Positions 11,158 to 26,296 of a stretch of DNA of 32,000 bases are shown piece after piece. Positions within the stretch are counted from its first letter, which is position 1. Each line of letters begins with the position of its first letter. Origin of the DNA: Synechococcus sp. A15-28 (lineage in GTDB: Bacteria; Cyanobacteriota; Cyanobacteriia; PCC-6307; Cyanobiaceae); assembly GCF_014280175.1 (NCBI RefSeq), contig NZ_CP047931.1, positions 1,680,001-1,712,000 of the forward strand. Reading direction: 5' to 3'. The notes below the pieces were generated by a model. The model did no database searches, had not been told where the DNA came from, and worked only from the letters and a program-made list of their open reading frames with translations. Made by a program: the position numbers and the translations under genes.

Positions 11158-11231
11158 GCTCCCTTAGCTCAGCTGGATAGAGCAACTGCCTTCTAAGCAG
11201 TCGGTCGATGGTTCGAATCCATCAGGGGGCG
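11158..11231 (+). tRNA. tRNA-Arg (anticodon TCT/UCU)
   Basis: I folded this 74-nt cloverleaf by hand. Acceptor stem GCTCCCT/AGGGGGC has one G-U pair. D arm is GCTC-AGCTGGATA-GAGC. Anticodon arm is ACTGC-CTTCTAA-GCAGT. Variable loop is CGGTC, T arm is GATGG-TTCGAAT-CCATC, and the discriminator is G. CCA is not encoded. Confidence 0.93.
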
Positions 11232-11287
11232 TTAACAGTCATAACAATGGTTTTCAGCGATTTACTGGGAGCCGTTTTTTCTTGAAA
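11189..11287 (+). repeat. att repeat, left copy (3' part of the intact tRNA plus terminator)
   Basis: Identical 16-nt core, then imperfect homology to 23817-23909 running through the T arm, acceptor strand and downstream hairpin to GCCGTTTTTTCTT. Confidence 0.75.
11249..11283 (+). terminator. Putative tRNA terminator (hairpin plus T-run)
   Basis: GGTTTTCAG / CTGGGAGCC stem (with G-U pairs) followed by GTTTTTTCTT. A homologous hairpin with compensatory changes lies at 23874-23907. Confidence 0.5.
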
Positions 11288-12034: not shown

Positions 12035-12577
12035 GTGTTTCACCTGCTAGCTGCAACTGTTGCCCTTTCTCTTGCTCTCCCAGCTACTGCAATGCCAATT
12101 AGCTTCGATCAATTTATAGAGCAGTCAGCGCTTGAGTTGAGCGAAAAGCAAGCTGCATTTAATTCAACGTTTCAGGCGGCCGTAGGCAACAACTCAAGGT
12201 ATGAATACGATCTAGTCGAAGGGTGGATTAAGTTTGTAGACATTAAAACGAACAAGGAATTGCTTAAATACAAAATAGCTTCTGTAGGTTCATACAATAC
12301 AATTCGTGGCACCTGGCAGTGGGCTTGGGCAAAAAAAGAACGCACAAAAGAAGAAATAACCTTACTCGTAAGGCAAATATCAATTCTAGCTCAGACTTTT
12401 CCTGACAATAAAGATCTATTCAACGCAAGTCCATTTAAAACAGATGAGTTCTATGGACAAGAAGTTTCAGGCGCTTTGCTTAAGCTTTTGGATGGACAAG
12501 CAATTTACAATGCAGCCGACAATGGAGAAGATAGTGAGTACTGGATTTACCTCGTCCTAGTTGAGCCAATTAACTAA
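12035..12577 (+). CDS. Hypothetical protein, possibly secreted (180 aa from GTG; alternative ATG at 12092)
   Basis: The GTG start is 9 nt after the previous stop. The N-terminus FHLLAATVALSLALPATA-MP looks like a Sec signal peptide with an AxA site. A conserved-looking Trp cluster, RGTWQWAWAKKE, is present. Confidence 0.6.
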   Translation: MFHLLAATVALSLALPATAMPISFDQFIEQSALELSEKQAAFNSTFQAAVGNNSRYEYDLVEGWIKFVDIKTNKELLKYKIASVGSYNTIRGTWQWAWAKKERTKEEITLLVRQISILAQTFPDNKDLFNASPFKTDEFYGQEVSGALLKLLDGQAIYNAADNGEDSEYWIYLVLVEPIN

Positions 12578-12625: not shown

Positions 12626-12691
12626 ATGGCAATCACCACCAAGCAGCAACGTCAGCAACGCCGCAGCGAGGCTCTAGAGGTAAAACCATGA
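12626..12691 (+). pseudogene. 21-codon remnant of a 13466-type gene start, overlapping the HNH start codon
   Basis: MAITTKQQRQQRRSEALEVKP compares with MARTSRAERHRRRESALALV at 13466. Nucleotide homology over 12616-12677 versus 13458-13523 is roughly two-thirds identical by eye and ends at the shared GGCTCTAG. The stop TGA overlaps the HNH ATG (CCATGA). Confidence 0.4.
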
Positions 12692-13416
12692 AAGATCATT
12701 ATTGGTATGTAGGTCTTGACAATGATGAATTTGCTAGACGATTTAGGTCGCGTTACAAAACACTCCCTAATGCTTTATTGGGTCAAGAGCTTTACGACAA
12801 AGTTGATGCTATGGAGGAAATTCACCTTCAACATCGTGGCAAATCAGAATTTGGTAGAGCCAAAATTGCCGAGCTGTGTGGATTTTGTGCGCAAAGAGAG
12901 GATGGAACCTTCAAGCGGCCTAATTACGTGGCTTTTAATATTGCTATTGCCCATATTTCAAGACAACAGCACGGCTACAGATCTTTGGGAAGGGAAGGCT
13001 ATTTAGAATCAGATAATACTGTCATCGACGAGCGTGATATTGCATCAATGACCACTAAATACCGCCCCAGGACTGGTGGTTTTAAAGAATCTGTTATCAG
13101 TACTCACGGCTTAGAATGTCAAGTTTGTGGGATGAAGATCAAGCCCTTGATAGAAGCTGCACATATTGTTCCTGTGGCCTTGAATGGTGTGGATCATTTC
13201 AGCAATGGCATACCTCTTTGCCCTAACCACCATGCTGCTTTTGATCGATACCTATTTGCCTTTGATCCAGTTGATCAATCAGTGGTCTTTAAAGATGGCT
13301 TGAATTACTCGGTGCTTGGAATCACCAAGCCAAAGTTAGTGGCCAACGTCAGTACTGAAGCTTTGAAAATCCGGTATGACCTTTTTCAGGAGAGCAACTG
13401 TGGCGGAGTGAGCTGA
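12688..13416 (+). CDS. HNH endonuclease (HNH_2-like, restriction-type)
   Basis: 242 aa. The C-terminal motif is CQVCGMKIKPLIEAAHIVPVALNGVDHFSNGIPLCPNHHAAFDRYLF, which follows the CxxC...AHI.P...NG..LC..HH..FD pattern. Confidence 0.8.
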   Translation: MKDHYWYVGLDNDEFARRFRSRYKTLPNALLGQELYDKVDAMEEIHLQHRGKSEFGRAKIAELCGFCAQREDGTFKRPNYVAFNIAIAHISRQQHGYRSLGREGYLESDNTVIDERDIASMTTKYRPRTGGFKESVISTHGLECQVCGMKIKPLIEAAHIVPVALNGVDHFSNGIPLCPNHHAAFDRYLFAFDPVDQSVVFKDGLNYSVLGITKPKLVANVSTEALKIRYDLFQESNCGGVS

Positions 13417-13852: not shown

Positions 13853-14000
13853 CAGTGAGTTAACAGCGCGCTTAAACGCGACAGCGCCCTGCTTGTGGTG
13901 CGTACTGGCCCGGGGCTTGGACACCCCGGGATTTCTTCTGCAATATCAGGACTGGCTTAAAATTGAGGAGCTGTTTCTTGATAAGTTTCGGGTTTTATGA
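13785..14000 (+). CDS. Possible small ORF (71 aa) translationally coupled to the TPR gene
   Basis: It overlaps the 3' end of the 13466 gene in another frame, and its stop overlaps the TPR ATG (TTATGA at 13996-14000). There is no family signal, so it may be spurious. Confidence 0.25.
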   Translation: MTMKLTKPVVLAGAIATATPEPDSELTARLNATAPCLWCVLARGLDTPGFLLQYQDWLKIEELFLDKFRVL

Positions 14001-14737
14001 ATCGGCCTATCAGCATCTCATTAATGCTTGGACTTCTACTTCAGGCATGTGGGGCGTCGTCTTTTGTGCATTTGCGGATAGCCGAGGAAAGCTTGTATAA
14101 AAAAGGAAAAGAATCAATAGTGATCGAAGAATCGACTAAGGCATTAGATATCGAAGAAAGTGCAGAGGCTTATTACATGAGAGGGGTCGCTCATAATGAT
14201 CTTGATAATTTCGCAAAGGCCCAGGAAGACTTGTCCAGCGCAATTAGAATGAATAGCAAAGTAGCTAAATATCACTACGTTCTAGGAAACAACTATGATG
14301 ACCAGAATGAGTTCAAGTCAGCCATCAACTCTTATAGTCAAGCCATAGAAATCCAGCCTAAGCACATAAATGCCATTGGTAATAGGGCCCTTGCCAAGAG
14401 AAGTATTGGAGATTTGAATGGCGCGATTCAGGACTTCTCGATGGCTATAAACATCGATCCTATGCATGCAAATAATTTGCGTATGAGAGGCAATCTCAAA
14501 TATCAATTAAATGATTTTAGCTCAGCGCTAGATGACTACAATAAGGCTGCTTCTATTGACTCTAAAATAGCGGATGAAAAAGCTTGGCGCTCCGATATTC
14601 ATGCGGATGTCTTGTTTGACAGAGGGTATGCCCTGTTCAGACTTGAAAGAATAAGTGAGGCATGCAGTGACTGGGAAGAATCCCTTGCATTGGGAAATGA
14701 TGATAGCTCAATACCCATTAAGTACTACTGCCAATAA
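13997..14737 (+). CDS. TPR-repeat lipoprotein
   Basis: Signal peptide with a lipobox, LLLQAC-G. It is followed by several 34-residue TPR-like units (AYYMRGVAHNDLDNFAKAQEDLSSAIRMN, YHYVLGNNYDDQNEFKSAINSYSQAIEIQP and others). Confidence 0.75.
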   Translation: MNRPISISLMLGLLLQACGASSFVHLRIAEESLYKKGKESIVIEESTKALDIEESAEAYYMRGVAHNDLDNFAKAQEDLSSAIRMNSKVAKYHYVLGNNYDDQNEFKSAINSYSQAIEIQPKHINAIGNRALAKRSIGDLNGAIQDFSMAINIDPMHANNLRMRGNLKYQLNDFSSALDDYNKAASIDSKIADEKAWRSDIHADVLFDRGYALFRLERISEACSDWEESLALGNDDSSIPIKYYCQ

Positions 14738-15085: not shown

Positions 15086-15448
15086 TCAATATTCGTAAAA
15101 CGCATCCTCCTGGAAGTCTCTATATTCACTTGCGCCTACGCACAAAGGGTCATCGCATCCATATAGCTCAGCGACTTCATCAGGGCCAAGCTCTCTCCCA
15201 TCTTGTGTGATTAGCAATAGGAGTGTGATCTCCTCCCATGTTTTATGGTGTTCTTCAAGTTCAGAACCGGCTTCATTAAATTCATGTTCCTCGAATTGTG
15301 GCTTGGGGTTTAAGTGTGGATAGAGTTCACTTGCGGCATTGTCATGCCAATAAAAGTCATAAAAATCTCCCTCTTTAAAGAAGAAAGTCTGGCCATGAAG
15401 AACAATAGAATCCAGACCCTTCATTGATGATTCAGTGGATTGAGTCAT
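15086..15448 (-). CDS. Highly acidic hypothetical protein (120 aa), last gene of the helicase-nuclease operon
   Basis: I count 28 Asp/Glu versus 6 Lys/Arg. It is aromatic-rich (FYDFYWHD, AFYEY). Its ATG overlaps the upstream ORF's stop (TAATG at 15446-15450). No competing ORF on either strand. Confidence 0.6.
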   Translation of the reverse strand: MTQSTESSMKGLDSIVLHGQTFFFKEGDFYDFYWHDNAASELYPHLNPKPQFEEHEFNEAGSELEEHHKTWEEITLLLLITQDGRELGPDEVAELYGCDDPLCVGASEYRDFQEDAFYEY

Positions 15449-15579
15449 TAAATGCTTTCCAATGTTTGGGCCATGTCAATAACCAATAGAGTCATTCTCC
15501 GCTCCAATCCATACGAGTTTTGAATAATATCTCTTGAAAAGGGAAAGTCATCATCTTCGGGGGGCACGAGCTTTGCCAT
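15448..15579 (-). CDS. Possible micro-ORF (43 aa) bridging the large gene and the acidic protein gene
   Basis: Internal Met of the 85-aa ORF gives MAKLVPPEDDDFPFSRDIIQNSYGLERRMTLLVIDMAQTLESI. It overlaps the end of the large ORF by 29 nt and is stop/start coupled to the next gene. Coding status is uncertain. Confidence 0.25.
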   Translation of the reverse strand: MAKLVPPEDDDFPFSRDIIQNSYGLERRMTLLVIDMAQTLESI

Positions 15580-18500
15580 CGCAATGTAGATCTTCACAGG
15601 GAAAATAAAAGCCAAATCTACTTTTCGCATAAACCGTTCTCGAACCACATTTAGGGCATTTAGGATTTTCTGATTGTGCCCAATCGACCATCGATGAGGG
15701 CGCAACTGGTCCAGGAAGTGAAAGAGATTTAGCCAATTCGAGAGCTATTCCAGGCTGCCTTACCAGCAACATTGACTCAAGCGTAGAACCAGCAAATGAA
15801 AGTGGATTTAGAGAACCATACCAGGCCAAGTCATCATCAATGAGCACAGCTTTTTGGTGAAGCTTGTTCCTCTGCTCAACCACAACACCTCTATCTCTTA
15901 TCAAGCGAACAAGATCAAATGATTTACTGGGATCAGACCTACCAAAGCTTCCATTTGTTTGATTGGTTGGCAGCACAAACTTTACCGTCACACCATCCTC
16001 AATAGGTTTTCGAAGGACAGTGAGAACCTCATCAACACGAGAAGGAGTGAAAAATCCAGAGAATATAACTATCGTATTTTTTGCCTCTTCAATGTTCTTA
16101 TATAACAGGGGAAAGAACGACGTCTCATCCACCATTCCATCCTGAATAGAGGTCTTAGCGACCGAAATGTGATTTACAGAGAGTTGAGCCTCAATAGCGC
16201 CTAACTCGCTTTTATCTACAAGGGCTCTTGCATCAACGACACGTCCCTTCATCTGCATAGAAAAGAGCACCTCCCGTAAGAAAGAGTAGTTAGACAATTG
16301 CTTATCAAGAACATTCAGATCAGCCAAAACAACCAATGACTTCTTGGCACGACTTATTGCTACATTTAAATTCTTGGCACCTTCATCCTGCGGCTTAATT
16401 GAATTAATAAAAGGGGCCAGGAAGTTCGATTCAGACTGTGCAACTACAGTATCAAACACAAGAAGATCACGTTCGTCACCCTGGAATTGGTGCACAGTAC
16501 CCACCGAGGTAATAACCTTTTGATCCTGTTCCGTAAGCAACTTAGAGAACAAGCGCGATTGAGCTGCGAAAGGTGTGCAATACCCTAAAGAAAGATTATT
16601 GGAATCAGCTACTTGTAGCAAAAGCTTTCTAGCGATATAAGCATGAAGAAGGTTTATCTTGCCGCCAGAAGCAGGCGTAGACGAAAACGAAAGCAAAGGC
16701 GAGGTGTCAATTAAAACAAGCTCCCCTAGCGAATCCAAAAGAGGATGGATAATGTTTATAGGATCAGACTTCAAACCCGAATGGAGCTGGTTGTTGTACA
16801 TATAGCCGGATATGAGATTACATATCGAAGGCTGCATTCGATACTGAGTGTCTAGAAATCCCAAGTTTTTTGACAAGCCAGAACCAGACCTAACGTCATC
16901 CTCGATACCACATACCTCAAAGATACTCTTACCGAGAATATCCTTAATCAACTTGTTGTCAGTTTGACAAATTGGTGAGAGCTGAGAAAAATCACCGGAC
17001 ACTATCACTCGCTTTTTAGCAATTGATGCTGCAACAAATAGCATTGGGAGAGAGGCCATCGAGGCCTCATCAATGATCACATTATCGTAAAATCCAAGAT
17101 CACCAAGGTTCATACATGTCTTAGCAAGGGTGGCACCAACAACAAAAGAATTTTCTATAATCGTCTGCTTAAGTGCCTGAAGAGATTCTTCAAGCTTTCT
17201 ACATCTAGAATCAATATCTCCAACATCTGCTTTAATCTTTAAAACTCTTGCATTCAAAGAATCCCTATCAATACCGGAGAGCTGTCTAGAAACTTCAACA
17301 TTACGAGTGGCAAGGTCTTCCGATAGATCTTTTAACCGCAGCAGCTTAGATCGATAGCCATCAAGGGTAGAATTTTTATGCAATATATCTTTCTCTAATG
17401 CATCTATCTGTCTTCTAAGAGTTTCGGGAGTTCTCCCGAAGACACCACCTAATCCACCTCGCCCCGAGCTTCTATCATTGTATTTTTGTCGAAGTTCATT
17501 GGCAGAATCTTCTAAAGATGATATCTCATCTCGTAGACTCTTTGCTAGAGCTTGAGTCTGCAAAAACTCTGATTTTGACCTCTGGATTTCAACTCCTACA
17601 CGATCAAGCTCATCAAACAAAGAAGATTTATCTAACAAGTCACTACTTTGATCAATAAGGTGACTCTTTCTGGACAGAAGCTGGGCGATTTCCTCTTTAA
17701 ATTCAAGTCCCAATTTCTCGGAGATACCCTCCACAGTCACTTGCTGTCGATGGTCTCTAATCAAGTCTTTATGACTAATATTGCCAATGCGAACAAACTT
17801 ATTTTCATCAACATACGACCTTGAATCCTCGCGACAACATTTCAAGAAGACCTGATCAACTGCCATATTTGTATTTGAACAGATCAAGGTCTTCTCTCCC
17901 GCATCGCAAAGATTTTTAATTACAGAAGTAAGAGTCTGCGTTTTTCCTGTCCCTGGAGGGCCCCAAAGAATTGAAAAATTATAACTTAAAGCCTTTTCAA
18001 TAAATGAGGCTTGAGAAGAATTCAGCTTCTCCAAATGAGAAGCCTTGATAGGTTCATCCAGTAATTGATATTGATTACTCAAAACGTTGGAAGCAAATTC
18101 AAGTAGCAATCCTTTCTTGGTCGACTTCTTATCCTTATCTCCCTTTCTTGAAATACCACATTCCCTCGCCAGCAAATCACGAATAAACATATCCATAGCG
18201 GTATCGTCAACGGATATGTCACCGCCGTTAAGGTGCTCACCCAAGTCCTCCTCTACTGTCAATGTCACTTCATTGCTAGAGGCGCCACTAATAGCAACAA
18301 CTCGCCCATCTGTTTTTCCATTGGCAGTCCTCAAAACCACTGATGAACCAGGGAAAAGCTCGTCAGCTCGGGAAGACACATTTACAATGTATGCAATGGA
18401 GTCTTCTGCTGAAGTAAGAGCAACAACTTTCCTACCTTGTTGAAAGGAGATTGATTTAGAACTCTTCTTCTTCGAGTCAGATATTCGCTGGTTAAGTGCA

Positions 18501-19024
18501 TGATAAAAACGCTCCGCCCAAGTCTTTCTAGAAATCTCAGAAACATCAAGCCCATCAACCGAACTTTCCTCTAAATTAAAAACCAAAGGATCGGGAGTAT
18601 CCATAAGCTCTGGCCCAGATTTACGAATTTCATGGATTGATATTTCCTTTTTTTCTGGCAATGGATGCTTTTCAAGATAATTACTCTCGGCCTTTGGAAT
18701 TAATGGATTATCAGCAGCAGGTTTTTTTTGAGCGGCATTATGGCCTAAATTCTTTTTGTGCCCTTCTTGCTTGTCTACTTGGTTCCGTTCCTCTCCTTCA
18801 TGAAAACTAGCCGCTGTAGAGCCAGGGGCAGTAGCATTCCTTGAAAGTTGCTTTTCAATTTTCTTTTTGATTGTCGATAGTTTTCTCTCAGCTCTTCTAC
18901 GTTTGGATATCTCCTCAAGAAGGAGCCGGAGTTTATTTGTATCAGCAGAGGCAAGTAGCTGCTCGGCCTGCTCAATGATTTCGTTGGTCCCAAGAGTTTT
19001 GTATGGCCTACTTGGTGATGCCAC
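15551..19024 (-). CDS. Fusion protein: Upf1-like SF1 helicase (AAA_11/AAA_12-type) + PLD-family (single HKD) nuclease + topoisomerase-type C4 zinc ribbon
   Basis: 1157 aa.
- Helicase motifs: I GPPGTGKT (aa 355-362, nt 17939-17962); II IIDEAS (nt 17060-17071); III VSGDFSQLSP; IV QYRM; V HQFQGDERD; VI VAISRAKKSLVV.
- A heptad-rich insert of about 190 aa spans aa 436-625.
- HKD motif HQKAVLID lies at aa 1056-1063 (nt 15836-15859), followed by GSLN.
- Zinc ribbon CPKCGS...FPCEDLHC lies at aa 1123-1148 (nt 15581-15658).
- The GTG start is the first codon after an in-frame stop. Confidence 0.9.
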   Translation of the reverse strand: MASPSRPYKTLGTNEIIEQAEQLLASADTNKLRLLLEEISKRRRAERKLSTIKKKIEKQLSRNATAPGSTAASFHEGEERNQVDKQEGHKKNLGHNAAQKKPAADNPLIPKAESNYLEKHPLPEKKEISIHEIRKSGPELMDTPDPLVFNLEESSVDGLDVSEISRKTWAERFYHALNQRISDSKKKSSKSISFQQGRKVVALTSAEDSIAYIVNVSSRADELFPGSSVVLRTANGKTDGRVVAISGASSNEVTLTVEEDLGEHLNGGDISVDDTAMDMFIRDLLARECGISRKGDKDKKSTKKGLLLEFASNVLSNQYQLLDEPIKASHLEKLNSSQASFIEKALSYNFSILWGPPGTGKTQTLTSVIKNLCDAGEKTLICSNTNMAVDQVFLKCCREDSRSYVDENKFVRIGNISHKDLIRDHRQQVTVEGISEKLGLEFKEEIAQLLSRKSHLIDQSSDLLDKSSLFDELDRVGVEIQRSKSEFLQTQALAKSLRDEISSLEDSANELRQKYNDRSSGRGGLGGVFGRTPETLRRQIDALEKDILHKNSTLDGYRSKLLRLKDLSEDLATRNVEVSRQLSGIDRDSLNARVLKIKADVGDIDSRCRKLEESLQALKQTIIENSFVVGATLAKTCMNLGDLGFYDNVIIDEASMASLPMLFVAASIAKKRVIVSGDFSQLSPICQTDNKLIKDILGKSIFEVCGIEDDVRSGSGLSKNLGFLDTQYRMQPSICNLISGYMYNNQLHSGLKSDPINIIHPLLDSLGELVLIDTSPLLSFSSTPASGGKINLLHAYIARKLLLQVADSNNLSLGYCTPFAAQSRLFSKLLTEQDQKVITSVGTVHQFQGDERDLLVFDTVVAQSESNFLAPFINSIKPQDEGAKNLNVAISRAKKSLVVLADLNVLDKQLSNYSFLREVLFSMQMKGRVVDARALVDKSELGAIEAQLSVNHISVAKTSIQDGMVDETSFFPLLYKNIEEAKNTIVIFSGFFTPSRVDEVLTVLRKPIEDGVTVKFVLPTNQTNGSFGRSDPSKSFDLVRLIRDRGVVVEQRNKLHQKAVLIDDDLAWYGSLNPLSFAGSTLESMLLVRQPGIALELAKSLSLPGPVAPSSMVDWAQSENPKCPKCGSRTVYAKSRFGFYFPCEDLHCDGKARAPRR

Positions 19025-19216
19025 TCAGGAATGGGTCTTTCTTGTAACCATCTTCGCTGAAAGAGTTTCGAGTGCGCATCCCACCTTTGACAAGGCTTGA
19101 CATTACTGGTGTCACCCCGAACCAACTGCGCTGCAACTGATCCGGGGGAATCTGACAAGAAAACAAGGATTCAGCACCGCTCACAACAGTGGGTGTTGCA
19201 AGCGGTGGGAGCAGTG

Positions 19217-20719
19217 TCAAAACCGTCGTTTCTTTGAAACTGACTGCGCTGCAATCGATTCCAGCTGACAGACGGGTTGTTTTTTGCTGTTAGTGCTGTC
19301 ACCAGGCATTGGCCGCAGTGACCTGTAGGTCAGCGAGCTGGTGTCCTCAACAACTTCGCCGTAACCGTGATCGCAGAGCATCTCCACGCAGGCAGCAAAG
19401 TCCTTGGTTTTGTAGGTGCGCCCACCCTTCCACGTCGCTTTGGCGTGGGAGAGCTTGTAGGTCACCTCACCAAGCTCCTGGCTAACGGAGTTGATGTGCT
19501 GCATGTACCGCAGCGCCCTGTCAGCAGACTGGTTGTGGAACAGCTCTGTCTCTTGGAGACATTGATCAACGATTGCCGCTGCCTGACGCATCAGATCAAC
19601 GCTGATCTCTTGATCTTCACCAACCCACAGCATGTGCAGGTTGCCCGCAAGCCGAAGCGCATGGGCACCAGCTTTGCCCCACATCGCTGAAATCACCTTT
19701 GGCGTTGATGGATCAATCGCCTTGAGATTCCGGGGCATAAACCAGCGGTTGTAGAAACGGCGGGCTTCCGCTGAGAGCTTGTATACGCGTGGTGGTGATT
19801 TGTGGAAGCGGTCGGCGTATTTAGCCAGCACCTTGCGGGCTTCATGCAACGCGGCTTCCTCTTCTGGGGTTTCATCCTCATCACGCAGGTTGAGCCCAAC
19901 CAGCGGCACCTTCACGCAGAGCAATCGTGCAAATTTGCCGGTGGCATCTTTGCCATTGATCAGCTCTGTCAAAGCATCCGGCTGGATGTTGCCGAACACC
20001 GAAACCATGCTGCCGTCGTAATGGCGAGCACCAGCAACAACGCCGTAGCTGGTGTTGCCACCACCATCGAACAGCTCCAGAAACTGCCCTTCAGCAGTGC
20101 CGCGCCCACGCTTGGTGTCAGCGTCCATTGCCCTTAGCAAGGCGCTGAACTCTTCACGCTTGATCAGCGCACCAAGGCGTTTTGCCTCGTAGTGAGGGAG
20201 CCAAACATCAAGAGCTTCAGGCGTGTACTGCTTGATGTGTGGGTACAGCGGAAGCGGCTTAGGTGGCCTGTCTTCCTTTTTCTTGATGGCCTTGCAGTCG
20301 TGTTCCCACTGCACAACCATGCGCTCGTGATGCTCTTTGGCATCAAGGCGAATGTGGGCTGATGGGGCATCAATCAGCTTGGTGGTGTGACCTGTCTTGG
20401 ACAAACCAGTAGGGCCTACAGAGGCGATAAACAGGTTCATCGGCACGCTGTACCGGGCGCTGCATTTGACGCGGTTGCCGAGCTTCAACAGTCCGGCACA
20501 ACCAACCAAAAAGATCAGCGTTGCCGTTAGGGCGTCAGCTGGATCTTCCTGGTTGATCAGCTCAACAGCAGCAGCCAGATCGGGTGGCAGCAGGTTGTCG
20601 TAGGTAAAGGCATCCCTACCAGCAGCCAACTCAATGACCCTGGATGCACCTTCAACGCCCTCTTCAGACATAGTGATTTCATTGCGGTCAACAGCCGCCT
20701 GAATTGCCTCAGTCGTCAT
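19217..20719 (-). CDS. DUF3987-like P-loop NTPase (putative replicative helicase of the element)
   Basis: 500 aa from the ATG at 20719; the ORF-track start at 20899 would overlap the primase gene by 190 nt. Walker A is VGPTGLSKTG (nt 20393-20416). The downstream ALIKREEFSALLRAMD...LELFDGG...VSVFGNIQPD pattern resembles DUF3987/P4-type helicases. Its start overlaps the primase stop by 11 nt. Confidence 0.7.
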   Translation of the reverse strand: MTTEAIQAAVDRNEITMSEEGVEGASRVIELAAGRDAFTYDNLLPPDLAAAVELINQEDPADALTATLIFLVGCAGLLKLGNRVKCSARYSVPMNLFIASVGPTGLSKTGHTTKLIDAPSAHIRLDAKEHHERMVVQWEHDCKAIKKKEDRPPKPLPLYPHIKQYTPEALDVWLPHYEAKRLGALIKREEFSALLRAMDADTKRGRGTAEGQFLELFDGGGNTSYGVVAGARHYDGSMVSVFGNIQPDALTELINGKDATGKFARLLCVKVPLVGLNLRDEDETPEEEAALHEARKVLAKYADRFHKSPPRVYKLSAEARRFYNRWFMPRNLKAIDPSTPKVISAMWGKAGAHALRLAGNLHMLWVGEDQEISVDLMRQAAAIVDQCLQETELFHNQSADRALRYMQHINSVSQELGEVTYKLSHAKATWKGGRTYKTKDFAACVEMLCDHGYGEVVEDTSSLTYRSLRPMPGDSTNSKKQPVCQLESIAAQSVSKKRRF

Positions 20720-21770
20720 GACGACGCCTCCAACCGTTATTGATGGCGTGGTGAAAAAGCGTTGCTGCCGTGATCTGAGCGCCACCACTGCGCACGATCT
20801 GGCTGATGTCCCAACCGCACTGCTTTGAAGGCGACCATGCCTCCAGCAGATCAACAGCGGTTTCATCGCTGTAACCGGCTTGATGGCAGGCATCCACAAC
20901 TGCCCAGCAGATGTTGCGGTGCTGGTTGTAGTTGCCTTGCCCAGCTACACGTCGCGGGATGGCAGACAGTGCTTCGCCGATCTCAGAGAGGGTGCTGTCT
21001 GGCCCGGAATAAACCTTCCGTGGACGTTCAATTGGCGGAGGTAAAGGCGGCAGCGACTCTTCAAACAGCTCAACGGGATAACGCTTGAAGCAGCCGGGCT
21101 TGATGACTGATGGCCAGCCAACTTTCAAGTCCTGGCTGATGTACCAACCACCAGGCAGGCGCATCAGACGGCTTGGATCCTTGATTGCTGTGTCGCTATT
21201 GCAGTGCTTGATCAACCGCTGCATCAACGGACGCCAGCGTTGAACTGAGATCGGCTGCTCCAGCGTCCAGAAGCTGTGGACTGATTTGCCACCGGTTGCG
21301 ACGCAAACCGTTGGATCAGGCAGACCAACCTCTGCTGGCCTAGCGAACTGTTGCCGCATGGGAATGTCGTCCCACTCAACAAACAGCGACTGACAGCTGG
21401 TTATGTCGGCGGCTTTGTCGCCACCAAGGTTTGGCACGGCGTAAAGGCCGTAGCCCTTGGCTTGAGCAAGCGGGAAGTCTTGCCAGTCATCTTTGAGCCA
21501 ACCGCTGTAAGCCCTGCCATTGCCACGCGGTAGTGCCCGGTAGCGGACATCAGCAGGATCACGGTTGAGGTAATGGCACCACCTTTCAGCCTGTTGCCAG
21601 TCGAAAGGGAAAAAATGCGCACCAAACTGCGCACAATCCTTACCCGAGGGCCACCAATCTTCAGGCTCCGGCCAGCATGTCACCGGAGTTACCAACTGCT
21701 GAAATAGCAGTGGGTCACCTAAACTGGGTTCAATCCACGGACCCAGGTCGGAGCTAATTGTTCCGGCCAT
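20709..21770 (-). CDS. Archaeo-eukaryotic-type primase-polymerase with PriCT-like C-terminal domain
   Basis: 353 aa. AEP-like motifs are LFVEWDD (aa 129-135), TGGKSVHSFW (aa 159-168) and DPSRLMRLPG (aa 198-207). The C-terminal NICWAVVDACHQAGYSDETAVDLLEAWS segment resembles PriCT domains. Confidence 0.7.
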   Translation of the reverse strand: MAGTISSDLGPWIEPSLGDPLLFQQLVTPVTCWPEPEDWWPSGKDCAQFGAHFFPFDWQQAERWCHYLNRDPADVRYRALPRGNGRAYSGWLKDDWQDFPLAQAKGYGLYAVPNLGGDKAADITSCQSLFVEWDDIPMRQQFARPAEVGLPDPTVCVATGGKSVHSFWTLEQPISVQRWRPLMQRLIKHCNSDTAIKDPSRLMRLPGGWYISQDLKVGWPSVIKPGCFKRYPVELFEESLPPLPPPIERPRKVYSGPDSTLSEIGEALSAIPRRVAGQGNYNQHRNICWAVVDACHQAGYSDETAVDLLEAWSPSKQCGWDISQIVRSGGAQITAATLFHHAINNGWRRRHDD

Positions 21771-22307: not shown

Positions 22308-23633
22308 TCAGGGGGCAGGGATGGTGGACACACCAGCGTTCGTTTTGGCCAAAGCTGCATCCATTGATTCGCGATCAAGCCAGTGGCCGTAATGCTTTAG
22401 ATGCGTCAAAAGCGAATGCCGCAGCCACTTTGCGGCCACCCGTTCGTGCATGTGATTCTCAGATTCAATGTGAGCCCTGAAGGCCCAGGCGTGCCTCAAG
22501 CTGTTCGCCGTGACATCGGGGTTGCCTGCCTTGATTACGTCACACCAGTAAGGAAAACGATTCAGCTGCTGACCAACCTCAGCGCCAACACCTTGAAAAC
22601 TATTTTTCTCGCTGATCATGGCGATCTGATTTCTGACAGCCTTGGGCAACCGCACCAATCCTGATTCGAAGGCAGCCAACATCTGCTGCGCTTCACCAGC
22701 AGGACGACCAGCAATTGCAAGCGGCATCACTGGATCAGGTGCCTTAGCTGGTTTGAACATGTTGCGGTGGTTCCGCTTGATGTGGCCGATGGTTGCCTGA
22801 CCATCTTTGACCTGCAAAACGGAAACTTCACCAGGCCGCAAACCCAGATAACTGATCAATCCAACGCAAAGCTTGAGGTCGTGCCGACCTGCCTCTTCCA
22901 AAGCATCCAACAGGTCACTGATCTGATGGCTCTTCAACGGTGGCGTTGCCTTGGCAGCTTCAACCTCAGCTGTTGCCGTACCAACCAGCTCACGCATCAG
23001 TTCCGTATCTGCTGCACCTGATGGAGGCACAAACCGCGCAGGCAGCATTTGACGATTAGTTGCCCACTTCAGAAACGCCACGCAGTCCTTCAGCGCCCTG
23101 GCACGCCCAGTGCCACCTGCAGCGACAACAGCGTTGCCATCAGCGTCATAGAAGTGCTGAGCGGCGTAAGCCCTCAAAGCAGCTTCAGCGTTGCGTGGTT
23201 TTGGAGCCGTGCCAACGGTGTTCAGGAGCTTCTGCAGCCGTGCAGAGGTCCACTTAATGGTGTTGGGCCTGCAGCCGCTTTTCGTCGCCATAAAGGCTTC
23301 AAGGGCTGTCTTCCATGCCTTCTCACCTGACCTAACGGTTGCGGCTGCTTGCTTTGGATCAGCAAGGGAATCGCCGTACTGCTTAACCGCTTTTTTGAGG
23401 GGCAGGTTCTGCTGCTCCATCAGGTTTCTGATGGCAGTGACCCAGTTCAAGATTGGTGTGCCGGAGTCCTTGCGCCAGGGCAACGGCAGGTATGCCGAAG
23501 ATCTGCTGTCGTCTTCAAACCGGCGGGTCAATTGCACCGTGCCTCGGTGGTCACGAATGGACCAGCCAAAGCCGTGTTCAGCTTTCAGCTGCCTTCTGAC
23601 GGTGACGAACCACTGTTCTCGCTTTGCGGGCAT
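22308..23633 (-). CDS. int: Tyrosine recombinase / phage-type integrase
   Basis: 441 aa from the ATG at 23633 (MPAKREQWF...). Box I is LGLRPGEV. The C-terminal SLRHAWAFRAH ... WLRHS..THLKHYGHW gives the R..HxxR..H..Y catalytic pattern. It lies adjacent to the att repeat. Confidence 0.88.
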   Translation of the reverse strand: MPAKREQWFVTVRRQLKAEHGFGWSIRDHRGTVQLTRRFEDDSRSSAYLPLPWRKDSGTPILNWVTAIRNLMEQQNLPLKKAVKQYGDSLADPKQAAATVRSGEKAWKTALEAFMATKSGCRPNTIKWTSARLQKLLNTVGTAPKPRNAEAALRAYAAQHFYDADGNAVVAAGGTGRARALKDCVAFLKWATNRQMLPARFVPPSGAADTELMRELVGTATAEVEAAKATPPLKSHQISDLLDALEEAGRHDLKLCVGLISYLGLRPGEVSVLQVKDGQATIGHIKRNHRNMFKPAKAPDPVMPLAIAGRPAGEAQQMLAAFESGLVRLPKAVRNQIAMISEKNSFQGVGAEVGQQLNRFPYWCDVIKAGNPDVTANSLRHAWAFRAHIESENHMHERVAAKWLRHSLLTHLKHYGHWLDRESMDAALAKTNAGVSTIPAP

Positions 23634-23664
23634 GACCGACTGCCTAGGGGCAGCTGCTCGGGTC

Positions 23665-23730
23665 TGTGCGCAGAATTGTGCGCAGAATGGTTGCAACAGT
23701 CAAGAACGGGTTGCAACTTCTGTGCGCATG
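23665..23730 (+). promoter_or_regulatory. Integrase-upstream control region: 2x TGTGCGCAGAAT, 2x GGTTGCAAC, third TGTGCGCA
   Basis: Lies 32-97 nt upstream of the integrase ATG (23633, minus strand). Motifs are at 23665-23688, 23689-23697, 23709-23717 and 23721-23728. Confidence 0.45.
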
Positions 23731-23816
23731 GCCTGACAGCTAGCCCAGTTACACCAATAGGTTTTTCCAGTGATTACGAGAATTTGACCCCGTTACCAGC
23801 ACCTACTGACCAATTA

Positions 23817-23909
23817 CCTTCTAAGCAGTCGGCCGTAGGTTCAAATCCTACAGGGGGCGCTAGTTATACCAACGGTTCTCAGCCAAAGCTGGGGGCCGTT
23901 TTTTCTTAA
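23817..23909 (+). repeat. att repeat, right copy (displaced tRNA-Arg 3' fragment 23817-23859 plus terminator-like hairpin)
   Basis: CCTTCTAAGCAGTCGG-CC-GTAGG-TTCAAAT-CCTAC-AGGGGGC-G. This is a valid anticodon-3'/variable/T-arm/acceptor half with no 5' half upstream. Confidence 0.75.
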
Positions 23910-24460: not shown

Positions 24461-24518
24461 ATCCGCTGCCATCGTTAGCGCATGAAACCCCTTGATCGAC
24501 TCGGCAACTGAGGCGGCC

Positions 24519-24552
24519 AAAAAGAAACCCCCGCCAAAGGCAGGGGTTTTTG
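24519..24552. terminator. Bidirectional terminator hairpin between convergent micro-genes
   Basis: CCCCCGCC-AAA-GGCAGGGG is an 8-bp stem with one mismatch. It is flanked by A-rich AAAAAGAAA on the 5' side and TTTTT on the 3' side, so a T-run follows the stem on both strands. Confidence 0.55.
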
Positions 24553-24573: not shown

Positions 24574-24675
24574 TCACTTGGCGTATGAAACGCCGCGATA
24601 GGTCAGAGCAGGCTTGTTAGAGGCGCCAGCCATTTTCTGCTGGTCGTACTTCTGGCCGCGATAGGTCAGGGTCAT
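24574..24675 (-). CDS. DUF4278-like micro-protein (33 aa)
   Basis: MTLTYRGQKYDQQKMAGASNKPALTYRGVSYAK. The duplicated L-T-Y-R-G-x-x-Y motif is typical of cyanobacterial DUF4278 peptides. A GAGGA sequence lies about 9 nt upstream of the ATG. Confidence 0.6.
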   Translation of the reverse strand: MTLTYRGQKYDQQKMAGASNKPALTYRGVSYAK

Positions 24676-25079
24676 TTGAGGTTCCTCAGAAATCCAGGTC
24701 CCCGTTCCTTGGCCTGGTGATCTGCGCCTTGCAGAAGCAAGGTGAACGTTGTCAGTAGCGGTTGCTACAACTCCTTTACAGAGGGGGCGTCAACACCCTT
24801 GTCGTTCAGGCGGATACATATCGTGCTTTTGGCTCGCCCTGCTCAGTGGCTTGCGCAAAAAGAAACCCCGGAGAGATCCCCGAGGTCAAAAATCCTTTCG
24901 GCTGATCCCCATCATCCGGCCGGACCCGATAAAGCTAACCTCATTGGACTCATTTGTGCCACGAGGAACTGATTTCCTCAATTGTGTATTGAAGTTCTGT
25001 TCCGACTTTGATGACACTATATGTGGGGCTAGTCAGCGCGAGGATGCTGCGCCATATTTGGATCTCCCCCATCACCCTG

Positions 25080-25109: not shown

Positions 25110-25200
25110 GTGCCCTAAAGCACTAGGGATGGTGCCATGAGCGGCCATTGCGGTCCAAAGACACAGCTTGGATCCACTGACCCTGTGGATAACTGAGGTC

Positions 25201-25228
25201 AAAAAGAAACCCCCGCCAAAGGCAGGGG
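25201..25228 (-). terminator. Second copy of the AAAAAGAAACCCCCGCCAAAGGCAGGGG element (terminator-like on the minus strand only)
   Basis: Identical 28-mer to 24519-24546. On the minus strand the hairpin is followed by TTTCTTTTT. It lies 129 nt downstream of the candidate minus-strand gene 25357-25533. Confidence 0.4.
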
Positions 25229-25356
25229 CTCCGAAACCTCACGGGGGTGTGACCTTGTTTCCAACCCGTGAAGTTTTCCCTCACAACTGAACTGTAAGCG
25301 TCCCAACTGTCACTGTGCCAGTTGGGCGGGGACAGCTTGTGGCTTGTCCTAAGCCA

Positions 25357-25713: not shown

Positions 25714-26296
25714 AATACCGTTCACTACATCCATGCAGCTCGTCCGGTAGCCCCGCGAACCTGAGTAGCCATTGATAGGTATTACAACTTATGTGGGAAT
25801 CTTTCTCATCCAACCGATGATGAAGATGGAGCGATCACTACGGCAACGCCCTGGGAGATGAAAGCCAGCGGGTTCCCTCACCCGCTTCTCCCTAAAGACC
25901 TTTGGAACATTTTTGTTATTAGGTCAGGGAAATAACCAACTCCTAGCCGGCTCCTGGGGCCCAACCAGCCCCAGCACGCCACCCTTCCAGCCCTGCAGCT
26001 TACTTTCGTCGAAGAAATCCCAGTCCTCCATCGCCCATGGCCGCTAGTACACAAGCACTAGACTCGATGCAGGATTTTGTGCAACTACCTGCAAAGCTGC
26101 GCGCAATCTTGCGTGCAGACAGCAGAAATTCGCTGAGATCGACTGCCACCACTAGCTTTGCTAGAATGCAGTCTAGGGGGCGTCAATTCATGCAGATCTT
26201 GCGCAGGGCTCCCACAACAAACCTCAACGATCGTTGATTCCATTCTGATCGGGTCGATCAGAGCGGATTCTTCACCACCGCATCGCCCGTCATCTG

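Follow-up and report, generated by a model that had tools for sequence, protein, structure and literature searches.

A Mokosh type II-like helicase–nuclease gene as a probable single-gene defence cassette on a tycheposon-like element of Synechococcus sp. A15-28

We analysed a stretch of 32,000 nucleotides from the marine cyanobacterium Synechococcus sp. A15-28 (contig NZ_CP047931.1, positions 1,680,001 to 1,712,000), referred to here as the window. Next to a tRNA-Arg(TCT) gene it carries an integrated element of ~12.6 kb. Within the AT-rich cargo of this element lies a gene for a protein of 1157 amino acids (aa), which joins an Upf1-like superfamily 1 (SF1) helicase, a nuclease domain of the phospholipase D (PLD) family and a zinc ribbon (Table 1). 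The gene is followed by two small open reading frames (ORFs). We read it as, probably, a single-gene cassette related to Mokosh type II, directed against phages or other mobile genetic elements (MGEs).

Table 1 Features of the helicase–PLD–zinc-ribbon gene, its cassette and the surrounding element (window coordinates).
Feature	Coordinates	Strand	Basis or remark
Helicase–PLD–zinc-ribbon gene (Mokosh type II-like)	15551..19024	-	GTG start, single ORF, 1157 aa
N-terminal helical bundle, residues 1-64 (followed by disordered linker 65-125)	18833..19024	-	AlphaFold2; no PADLOC match
Beta-barrel module before RecA1, residues 190-272	18209..18457	-	AlphaFold2 strands
Helicase core, Upf1-like SF1B, residues 333-902 (Walker A K361, DEAS 652-655, motifs III-VI)	16319..18028	-	Pfam, PDB sequence matches, Foldseek
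Three-long-helix insert between motifs Ia and II ("coiled-coil insert"), residues 440-625	17150..17707	-	AlphaFold2
PLD-family nuclease domain, single HKD, residues 975-1099	15728..16102	-	Pfam; PADLOC MkoB and C-terminal part of MkoC
Four-Cys zinc ribbon, topoisomerase-I type, residues 1121-1148	15581..15664	-	Cys conservation; PF01396 in homologs
Mobile cassette (~3.6 kb)	15515..19082	-	blastn, 86% nucleotide identity to metagenome contig L001 (2255-5821)
43-codon ORF, probably not a gene	15448..15579	-	Overlaps 3' end of the 1157-aa gene; not conserved
p120, 120-aa acidic protein, real but independent gene	15086..15448	-	Purifying selection
DUF6882 protein, same island	12035..12577	+	Pfam
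DUF3987 helicase (replication module 19217..21770)	19217..20899	-	Pfam DUF3987, E 6.5e-27; PHROGs DNA helicase family
Primase-like gene (replication module 19217..21770)	20709..21770	-	PHROGs DNA primase family
Integrase	22308..23696	-	PHROGs phrog_1, E 1.1e-11
tRNA-Arg(TCT), integration site	11158..11231	+	ARAGORN; Rfam tRNA, 67.6 bits
tRNA-Arg 3'-part remnant, far end of the ~12.6-kb element	23808..23862	+	82% identical to 11180-11234

The predicted protein matched, at 100% identity, an NCBI entry from Synechococcus sp. A15-28 named "AAA domain-containing protein". A sequence-only reading of the stretch had named a full Upf1-like motif set, a single HKD motif and a cysteine ribbon, and all of the motifs it quoted were present. 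The helicase motifs were GPPGTGKT (355-362, with the Walker A lysine K361), DEAS (652-655), GDFSQLSP (677-684), QYRM (727-730), FQGDERD (847-853) and SRAK (891-894). The PLD motif HQKAVLID (1056-1063) was followed by GSLN (1070-1073), and the ribbon cysteines of the pattern CPKC...C...C were C1123, C1126, C1143 and C1148. In an alignment of 35 full-length family members the helicase motifs, H1056, K1058, D1063 and GSLN were invariant, and each of the four ribbon cysteines was conserved in at least 90%. Pfam placed AAA_11 at residues 333-687 (E 4.6e-35), AAA_12 at 720-902 (E 9e-24) and PLDc_2 at 975-1099 (33.6 bits against a cutoff of 27). The zinc ribbon (Zn_ribbon_Top1, residues 1122-1144) reached only 14.5 bits against a cutoff of 32, so that the Pfam families expected from the motifs were recovered for the helicase and nuclease parts and not for the ribbon; PF01396 is nevertheless recorded for many homologs. 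No Ser/Thr kinase domain was found with Pfam. Compared with the closest homolog (84% aa identity), the proportion of differences was 0.34 at synonymous sites (pS) and 0.078 at non-synonymous sites (pN). In the family alignment, what looks like another CxxC zinc-ribbon unit follows the first one in some of the more distant members (consensus "...p~Cp~c~~~m"). A scan for promoters and terminators gave nothing exceeding the shuffled expectation.

An AlphaFold2 model of the protein, built with the family alignment, had a predicted local distance difference test score (pLDDT) of 82 and a predicted template modelling score (pTM) of 0.66. At the N-terminus three helices (13-26, 29-40 and 43-64; pLDDT ~90) precede a linker (65-125) with pLDDT <50. 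Six strands (190-200, 210-216, 228-233, 236-246, 252-257 and 268-272) form a barrel, in a region where G197, Y212, F224, G240, G262 and D273 were conserved across the family; by its position the modelled barrel may correspond to the 1B barrel of Upf1-like helicases. The model further shows two RecA-like domains, the long helices of the insert (440-519, 533-581 and 587-625), a compact PLD domain (963-1100) and a small beta-ribbon (1132-1143). A Foldseek search of the PDB listed SETX, Upf1, IGHMBP2, Dna2 and Sen1 at E-values of 4e-27 to 1e-20, and also ZNFX1 and nidovirus nsp13, with an overall range of 4e-27 down to 1e-14. Sequence matches to PDB entries of Upf1, IGHMBP2, SETX, Dna2 and Sen1 agreed with this set. 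No Mokosh structure was found among the PDB entries by sequence search, and the fold search in BFVD returned RNA-virus SF1 helicases only.

Type II Mokosh consists of one gene, with a COG1112/Upf1-like helicase in the N-terminal and a PLD-family nuclease in the C-terminal part, and mutation of the Walker or the PLD motif abolishes defence (Millman et al.). With the PADLOC models, for which the protein was scanned in pieces, the type II model MkoC (PDLC03924) matched with 129 bits (E 3.7e-38) over ~40% of the profile. This match came in three colinear pieces: residues 355-577 on MkoC positions 272-489, 813-925 on 860-968, and 973-1079 on 996-1103. The type I model MkoA (PDLC03920) gave 173 bits, for the helicase part only (profile 568-1094), and the MkoB model 40–42 bits on the PLD domain. 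No PADLOC model matched residues 1-330. As bona fide MkoC references we took three full-length plasmid proteins from Arsenophonus, Vibrio and P. syringae, which scored 1373–1414 bits end to end on the MkoC profile (positions 1-1135). A profile–profile comparison with hhalign (run with -norealign) of the 35-member family against these three gave a probability of 100% and an E-value of 6e-47 over 729 columns, with 19% identity. The alignment spanned query columns 311-1157 of 1205 (residues 333-1157) and MkoC columns 267-1173. The N-terminal parts (1-330 against MkoC 1-266) were unrelated, with an hhalign probability of 0.14%.

YjhR of E. coli K-12, an MkoC remnant, gave 464 bits on MkoC profile positions 812-1135. 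BLASTP aligned it to residues 813-1076 of our protein in one piece, across the helicase–PLD junction, with 25% identity over 279 aa (E 7e-16). The yjhR loci inspected in two other E. coli strains held remnants only, and the homologs listed in the YjhR search were fragments only. By these alignments the core of helicase, linker and PLD domain, at residues ~311-1100, is homologous to that of bona fide MkoC and runs colinear with it through the HKD and GSLN motifs. The cysteine ribbon was not found in YjhR or MkoC and is, on the same comparison, an addition relative to MkoC.

The sequence-only reading had proposed a defence-type helicase–PLD fusion related to Mokosh, and the hhalign and PADLOC MkoC matches support this. 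It had also listed several traits as matching no system that it could name, and these fared differently. The C-terminal position of the PLD domain is no departure: helicase followed by PLD is the standard order in type II Mokosh, therefore the domain order is not unusual, and YjhR aligns across the junction. Nor is the coiled-coil insert distinctive, as MkoC has an equivalent and longer one (Walker A to motif II ~400 profile positions, against 291 residues in the 1157-aa protein). The topoisomerase-type zinc ribbon did turn out to lack a counterpart in MkoC.

Among 5.8 billion proteins we found 126 matches at E<=1e-10, scattered across many phyla, of which ~35 have the complete architecture. 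Viral contigs of IMG/VR and metagenome contigs of JGI yielded no close or full-architecture relative. In a census of 63 flanking ORFs at 11 genome loci, no neighbour family occurred in more than two of the 63 proteins. The neighbours included subunits of type I restriction–modification (R-M) systems, PglX/PglZ of bacteriophage exclusion (BREX), a type IIG enzyme, a reverse transcriptase–RmuC protein of the defence-associated reverse transcriptase (DRT) type and ordinary metabolic genes. One relative was found beside Cas1 fragments and another as a lone insertion amid metabolic genes. A relative with 33% identity adjoined an integrase, a D5 primase, VRR_NUC and UvrD in another integrative element.

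The closest homolog (P0002) was located on three contigs. DNA similarity to it began 58 nt before the start codon of the gene and ended 36 nt after its stop codon, and the flanks beyond were unrelated. The G + C content of the gene was 0.41–0.42, against 0.50 for the flanks in contig L001 and 0.55–0.65 in the window. The comparison indicates that the helicase–PLD gene moves between unrelated contexts as a unit of ~3.6 kb, without a conserved partner. The boundary sequences showed no obvious flanking repeat by which the exchange could be explained, although no repeat search was run there.

This cassette-like transfer, the composition foreign to the host, the position inside an integrated element and the very sparse, patchy distribution speak against a housekeeping or repair helicase–nuclease of the Dna2 or IGHMBP2 kind with no role in conflict. 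Such a function would account for the sequence and fold similarity to Dna2, IGHMBP2, Upf1 and SETX and for the metabolic genes that flank some relatives; we consider it very improbable.

The sequence-only reading had placed the gene in the AT-rich cargo of a mobile element, directly downstream of its replication genes. Both points were borne out, by the contrast in G + C content, the tRNA-Arg gene with its remnant and the integrase for the first, and by a primase-like gene and a DUF3987 helicase on the same strand for the second. The G + C content was 0.40–0.44 across the 1157-aa gene and the small ORFs and 0.40–0.46 in the element cargo generally, 0.55 in the neighbouring replication genes and 0.60–0.65 in the flanking chromosome. 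Beside the tRNA remnant, two further repeat pairs (11265/23889 and 11297/23665) were in register. Tycheposon-like insertions described from Synechococcus have a recombinase and a tRNA remnant at the distal end. The element of A15-28 shares with tycheposons the tRNA integration with a remnant at the far end, a distal integrase of the tyrosine-recombinase type, a primase and a helicase, and AT-rich cargo; its site, tRNA-Arg(TCT), is a difference from them. By its tRNA-adjacent insertion, partial tRNA repeat, recombinase and replication genes we classify it as tycheposon-like.

The 1157-aa gene starts 192 nt downstream of the replication genes, on the same strand, and because of this a role in the DNA metabolism of the element is conceivable: the protein could be an accessory helicase–nuclease that processes replication or transfer intermediates of the element itself rather than attacking invaders. 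The 33% relative, with its integrase, D5 primase, VRR_NUC and UvrD neighbours, fits such a role. However, the flanks of the closest homologs are unrelated and lack these replication genes, and other relatives are lone insertions or sit beside R-M or BREX genes. The sharp drop in G + C content at the cassette edge (0.42 against 0.55) indicates separately acquired cargo, and the homologous core of MkoC belongs to an experimentally validated defence protein. We regard the accessory role as unlikely.

Some tycheposons resemble phage-inducible chromosomal islands (PICIs) and carry phage-interference genes, and the integrase, primase and helicase of our element are hallmark genes that would suit a PICI-like satellite. 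The protein might then degrade or block the genome of a helper cyanophage to favour packaging of the element. Yet with Pfam and PHROGs we found no capsid, terminase, terS or other packaging gene among the element ORFs; no full-architecture relative stood on IMG/VR viral contigs, and relatives occur in chromosomal, non-satellite contexts. This explanation, which departs from ordinary defence solely in the beneficiary, seems to us quite improbable.

Both small ORFs downstream of the gene, pointed out in the sequence-only reading, exist in the ORF calls. That reading had further described them as linked by overlapping stop and start codons and as coupled partners of the large protein, a module that could be a new variant or a new system. 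The overlap holds between the 43-codon ORF and p120, where the TAA of the former overlaps the ATG of the latter (TAATG). It does not hold between the 1157-aa gene and the 43-codon ORF, which starts 29 nt inside the gene in a different frame. The 43-codon ORF had no family match in Pfam or PADLOC, and its counterpart at the 84% homolog has only 17 codons. p120 had no match in Pfam, PADLOC, NCBIfam or PHROGs. It is strongly acidic (isoelectric point 4.18; 28 Asp/Glu against 6 Lys/Arg), and its AlphaFold2 model (pLDDT 57.5) was too poor for a fold search. Against a homolog of 74% identity it had pS 0.77 and pN 0.14, which marks it, at the level of sequence comparison, as a real gene under purifying selection. 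Three relatives were found by a word-based search and nine when 1.84 billion representatives were searched exhaustively with a profile.

If the three ORFs formed a translationally coupled defence system, the reality of p120, the TAATG overlap and the contiguous arrangement on one strand would be explained. The homolog loci tell otherwise and largely refute this three-gene module. The similarity to the 84% homolog ends just past its stop codon, and p120 is absent from its loci. At five further close homolog loci, with homologs of 57%, 58%, 51% and 40% identity, a convergent gene or nothing lay downstream, and the two small ORFs were missing. A tightly coupled small acidic ORF was absent at 12 genome loci whose gene has the architecture in full or nearly so. 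p120 did not co-occur with helicase–PLD homologs: a hidden Markov model (HMM) of its family, run on 21 helicase–PLD family loci, matched in the window locus only. Conversely, the 74% homolog of p120 (contig L006) had no helicase–PLD gene in the 363 nt upstream. A three-gene system is therefore the least credible of the explanations considered, and the comparison of loci indicates that neither the 43-codon ORF nor p120 is a component of the helicase–PLD unit. Of the proposed "new variant or new system", a non-canonical Mokosh-like variant thus stands, and a new multi-gene system, lacking any conserved partner, does not.

The only domain fusion seen for p120 was with DUF6882, in one relative (P0246, 346 aa). 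If p120 has a partner, this fusion suggests DUF6882, and p120 may form a functional pair with the DUF6882 protein of the same island, which is encoded on the opposite strand. The only paper found that mentions DUF6882 seemed unrelated. The DUF6882 gene is adjoined by a 242-aa HNH_2 endonuclease in the AT-rich cargo (12688-13416, plus strand; Pfam E 4e-15, with weak PADLOC matches to HNH and type II restriction endonuclease models). A tetratricopeptide repeat (TPR) protein (13997-14737) and small helix-turn-helix (HTH) proteins adjoin the endonuclease as well. Its gene may be another with a role in conflict.

Just outside the distal end of the element we found a Glutamine-II riboswitch at 24693-24751 on the minus strand (60.1 bits against a gathering score of 33). 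Directly 3' of it lies a 33-codon ORF (24574-24675, minus strand) with a repeated TYRG motif (MTLTYRGQKY...ALTYRGVSYAK), and the two together make the classic "downstream peptide" arrangement. A Cyano-1 RNA match at 25230-25290 (minus strand) stayed below threshold (38.6 bits against 41, E 2.8e-4). In the same region a 32-nt element, GGCCAAAAAGAAACCCCCGCCAAAGGCAGGGG, occurs in three copies (24515-24546, 24853-24884 and 25197-25228) spaced by ~340 nt. On the minus strand it resembles a hairpin with a T-run behind it. The copies lie where long ORFs are lacking, and they may act as terminators for small transcription units arranged in tandem. Between 23900 and 28000 the G + C content was 0.50–0.55, against 0.57–0.60 from 28 kb on, and long ORFs were scarce. 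At 26098 the att-adjacent repeat recurs once more, with 73% identity. The low G + C content and the extra repeat would fit decayed earlier insertions at the same tRNA site.

Taken together, the neighbour contexts, the homology to a validated defence protein, the foreign composition and the cassette-like transfer lead us to favour a single-gene, Mokosh type II-like defence cassette against phages or MGEs, carried as cargo of the tycheposon-like element at tRNA-Arg(TCT). Several points weigh against it. Beside bona fide MkoC proteins, ours matches the MkoC model weakly and only in part, its N-terminal third is unrelated to MkoC, and several relatives sit among ordinary metabolic genes. Because the helicase core scores higher on the type I model MkoA than on MkoC, the fusion of helicase and PLD may have arisen independently of MkoC, and the target or trigger may differ. 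For the zinc-ribbon clade, a defence function is drawn from homology and context, and we hold it to be fairly probable.

In the favoured reading, the helicase would load on single-stranded nucleic acid arising from infection, such as phage RNA, single-stranded DNA (ssDNA) or replication intermediates, and would use ATP to translocate in the 5' to 3' direction, the polarity typical of Upf1-like SF1B helicases. The zinc ribbon would add a contact of the ssDNA type, and the PLD domain would cleave the substrate. A single HKD motif makes half a PLD active site, so nuclease activity probably needs two paired PLD domains, and dimerisation driven by the substrate could be the on-switch of an otherwise monomeric protein. 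This last step is pure conjecture, and it must be set against the E. coli protein EcMokosh II, which the one in vitro study we found describes as a 132-kDa monomer that protected against an ssDNA phage only. The N-terminal ~330 residues, with helical bundle, disordered linker and beta-barrel, probably set a sensing or regulatory specificity that differs from that of MkoC.

Marine picocyanobacteria have few recognised anti-phage systems, and resistance to phages is usually put down to island-encoded surface changes. If our reading is right, the locus would be a concrete example of a nucleic-acid-targeting defence gene that is exchanged, with sharp cassette ends, as cargo of a tycheposon-like element. 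In the literature searched we found no description of Mokosh-like cargo on tycheposon-type elements, nor of Mokosh in Synechococcus. The divergent N-terminal module and the ssDNA-type ribbon could help to dissect what Mokosh proteins sense. The helicase–PLD–ribbon gene is not a new kind of system; its main significance would lie in the marine picocyanobacterial, tycheposon-like setting and in these divergent modules.

Among other helicase–nuclease systems, the PADLOC models for Nhi (20.5 bits), Hhe (21 bits) and GajB (<=29 bits) matched only Walker A or motif V–VI segments, and the NCBIfam Hhe model gave 16.6 bits against a cutoff of 2000. Membership of Nhi, Hhe or Gabija GajB was thus rejected, there being no family-level match. 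NCBIfam also gave a partial match labelled "PLuB system", for which a literature search yielded nothing relevant. The piRNA (PIWI-interacting RNA) pathway, whose link to Mokosh has been discussed in the literature, combines the same two activities in MOV10L1 and PLD6/Zucchini, and the helicase fold of our protein is nearest to SETX, Upf1 and IGHMBP2. MOV10L1 and PLD6/Zucchini are, however, separate proteins with other accessory domains, and the likeness is at the domain level only.

With Mokosh type I the protein shares a helicase core that is best matched by the MkoA model and a PLD domain that matches MkoB. In contrast to type I, which has two genes, MkoA with a kinase domain and MkoB, there is one gene, a kinase domain was not found, and the N-terminal part of the MkoA profile (1-567) is unmatched. 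A more far-reaching possibility, which we put forward only tentatively and think rather unlikely, is that the zinc-ribbon family is a third Mokosh architecture, in which a kinase-less MkoA-like helicase was joined to a PLD domain in a separate fusion event, together with a sensor module of its own at the N-terminus and an ssDNA-binding ribbon of the topoisomerase type. As a 3.6-kb cassette it would have spread among tRNA-targeting islands of marine picocyanobacteria and would confer resistance to cyanophages or ssDNA elements through a trigger other than that of E. coli MkoC.

The closest known counterpart is Mokosh type II. Like it, the protein is a single polypeptide of ~1150 aa in which a PLD domain with one HKD motif stands C-terminal to an Upf1-like SF1 helicase, and the residues for ATP binding and for PLD catalysis are intact. 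Both also have long helices inserted between Walker A and motif II. Further in common are the lack of a conserved partner gene (21 family loci) and the carriage on plasmids, islands and other MGEs. Unlike MkoC, it has ~330 N-terminal residues without homology to the 266-residue MkoC N-terminus, a conserved C-terminal four-Cys ribbon that sets its family apart from YjhR as well, and a three-piece match to the MkoC model far below the end-to-end scores of full-length MkoC, with a core identity of ~19%. On these comparisons we place the 1157-aa protein as a distant, zinc-ribbon-bearing relative of Mokosh type II rather than a canonical member.

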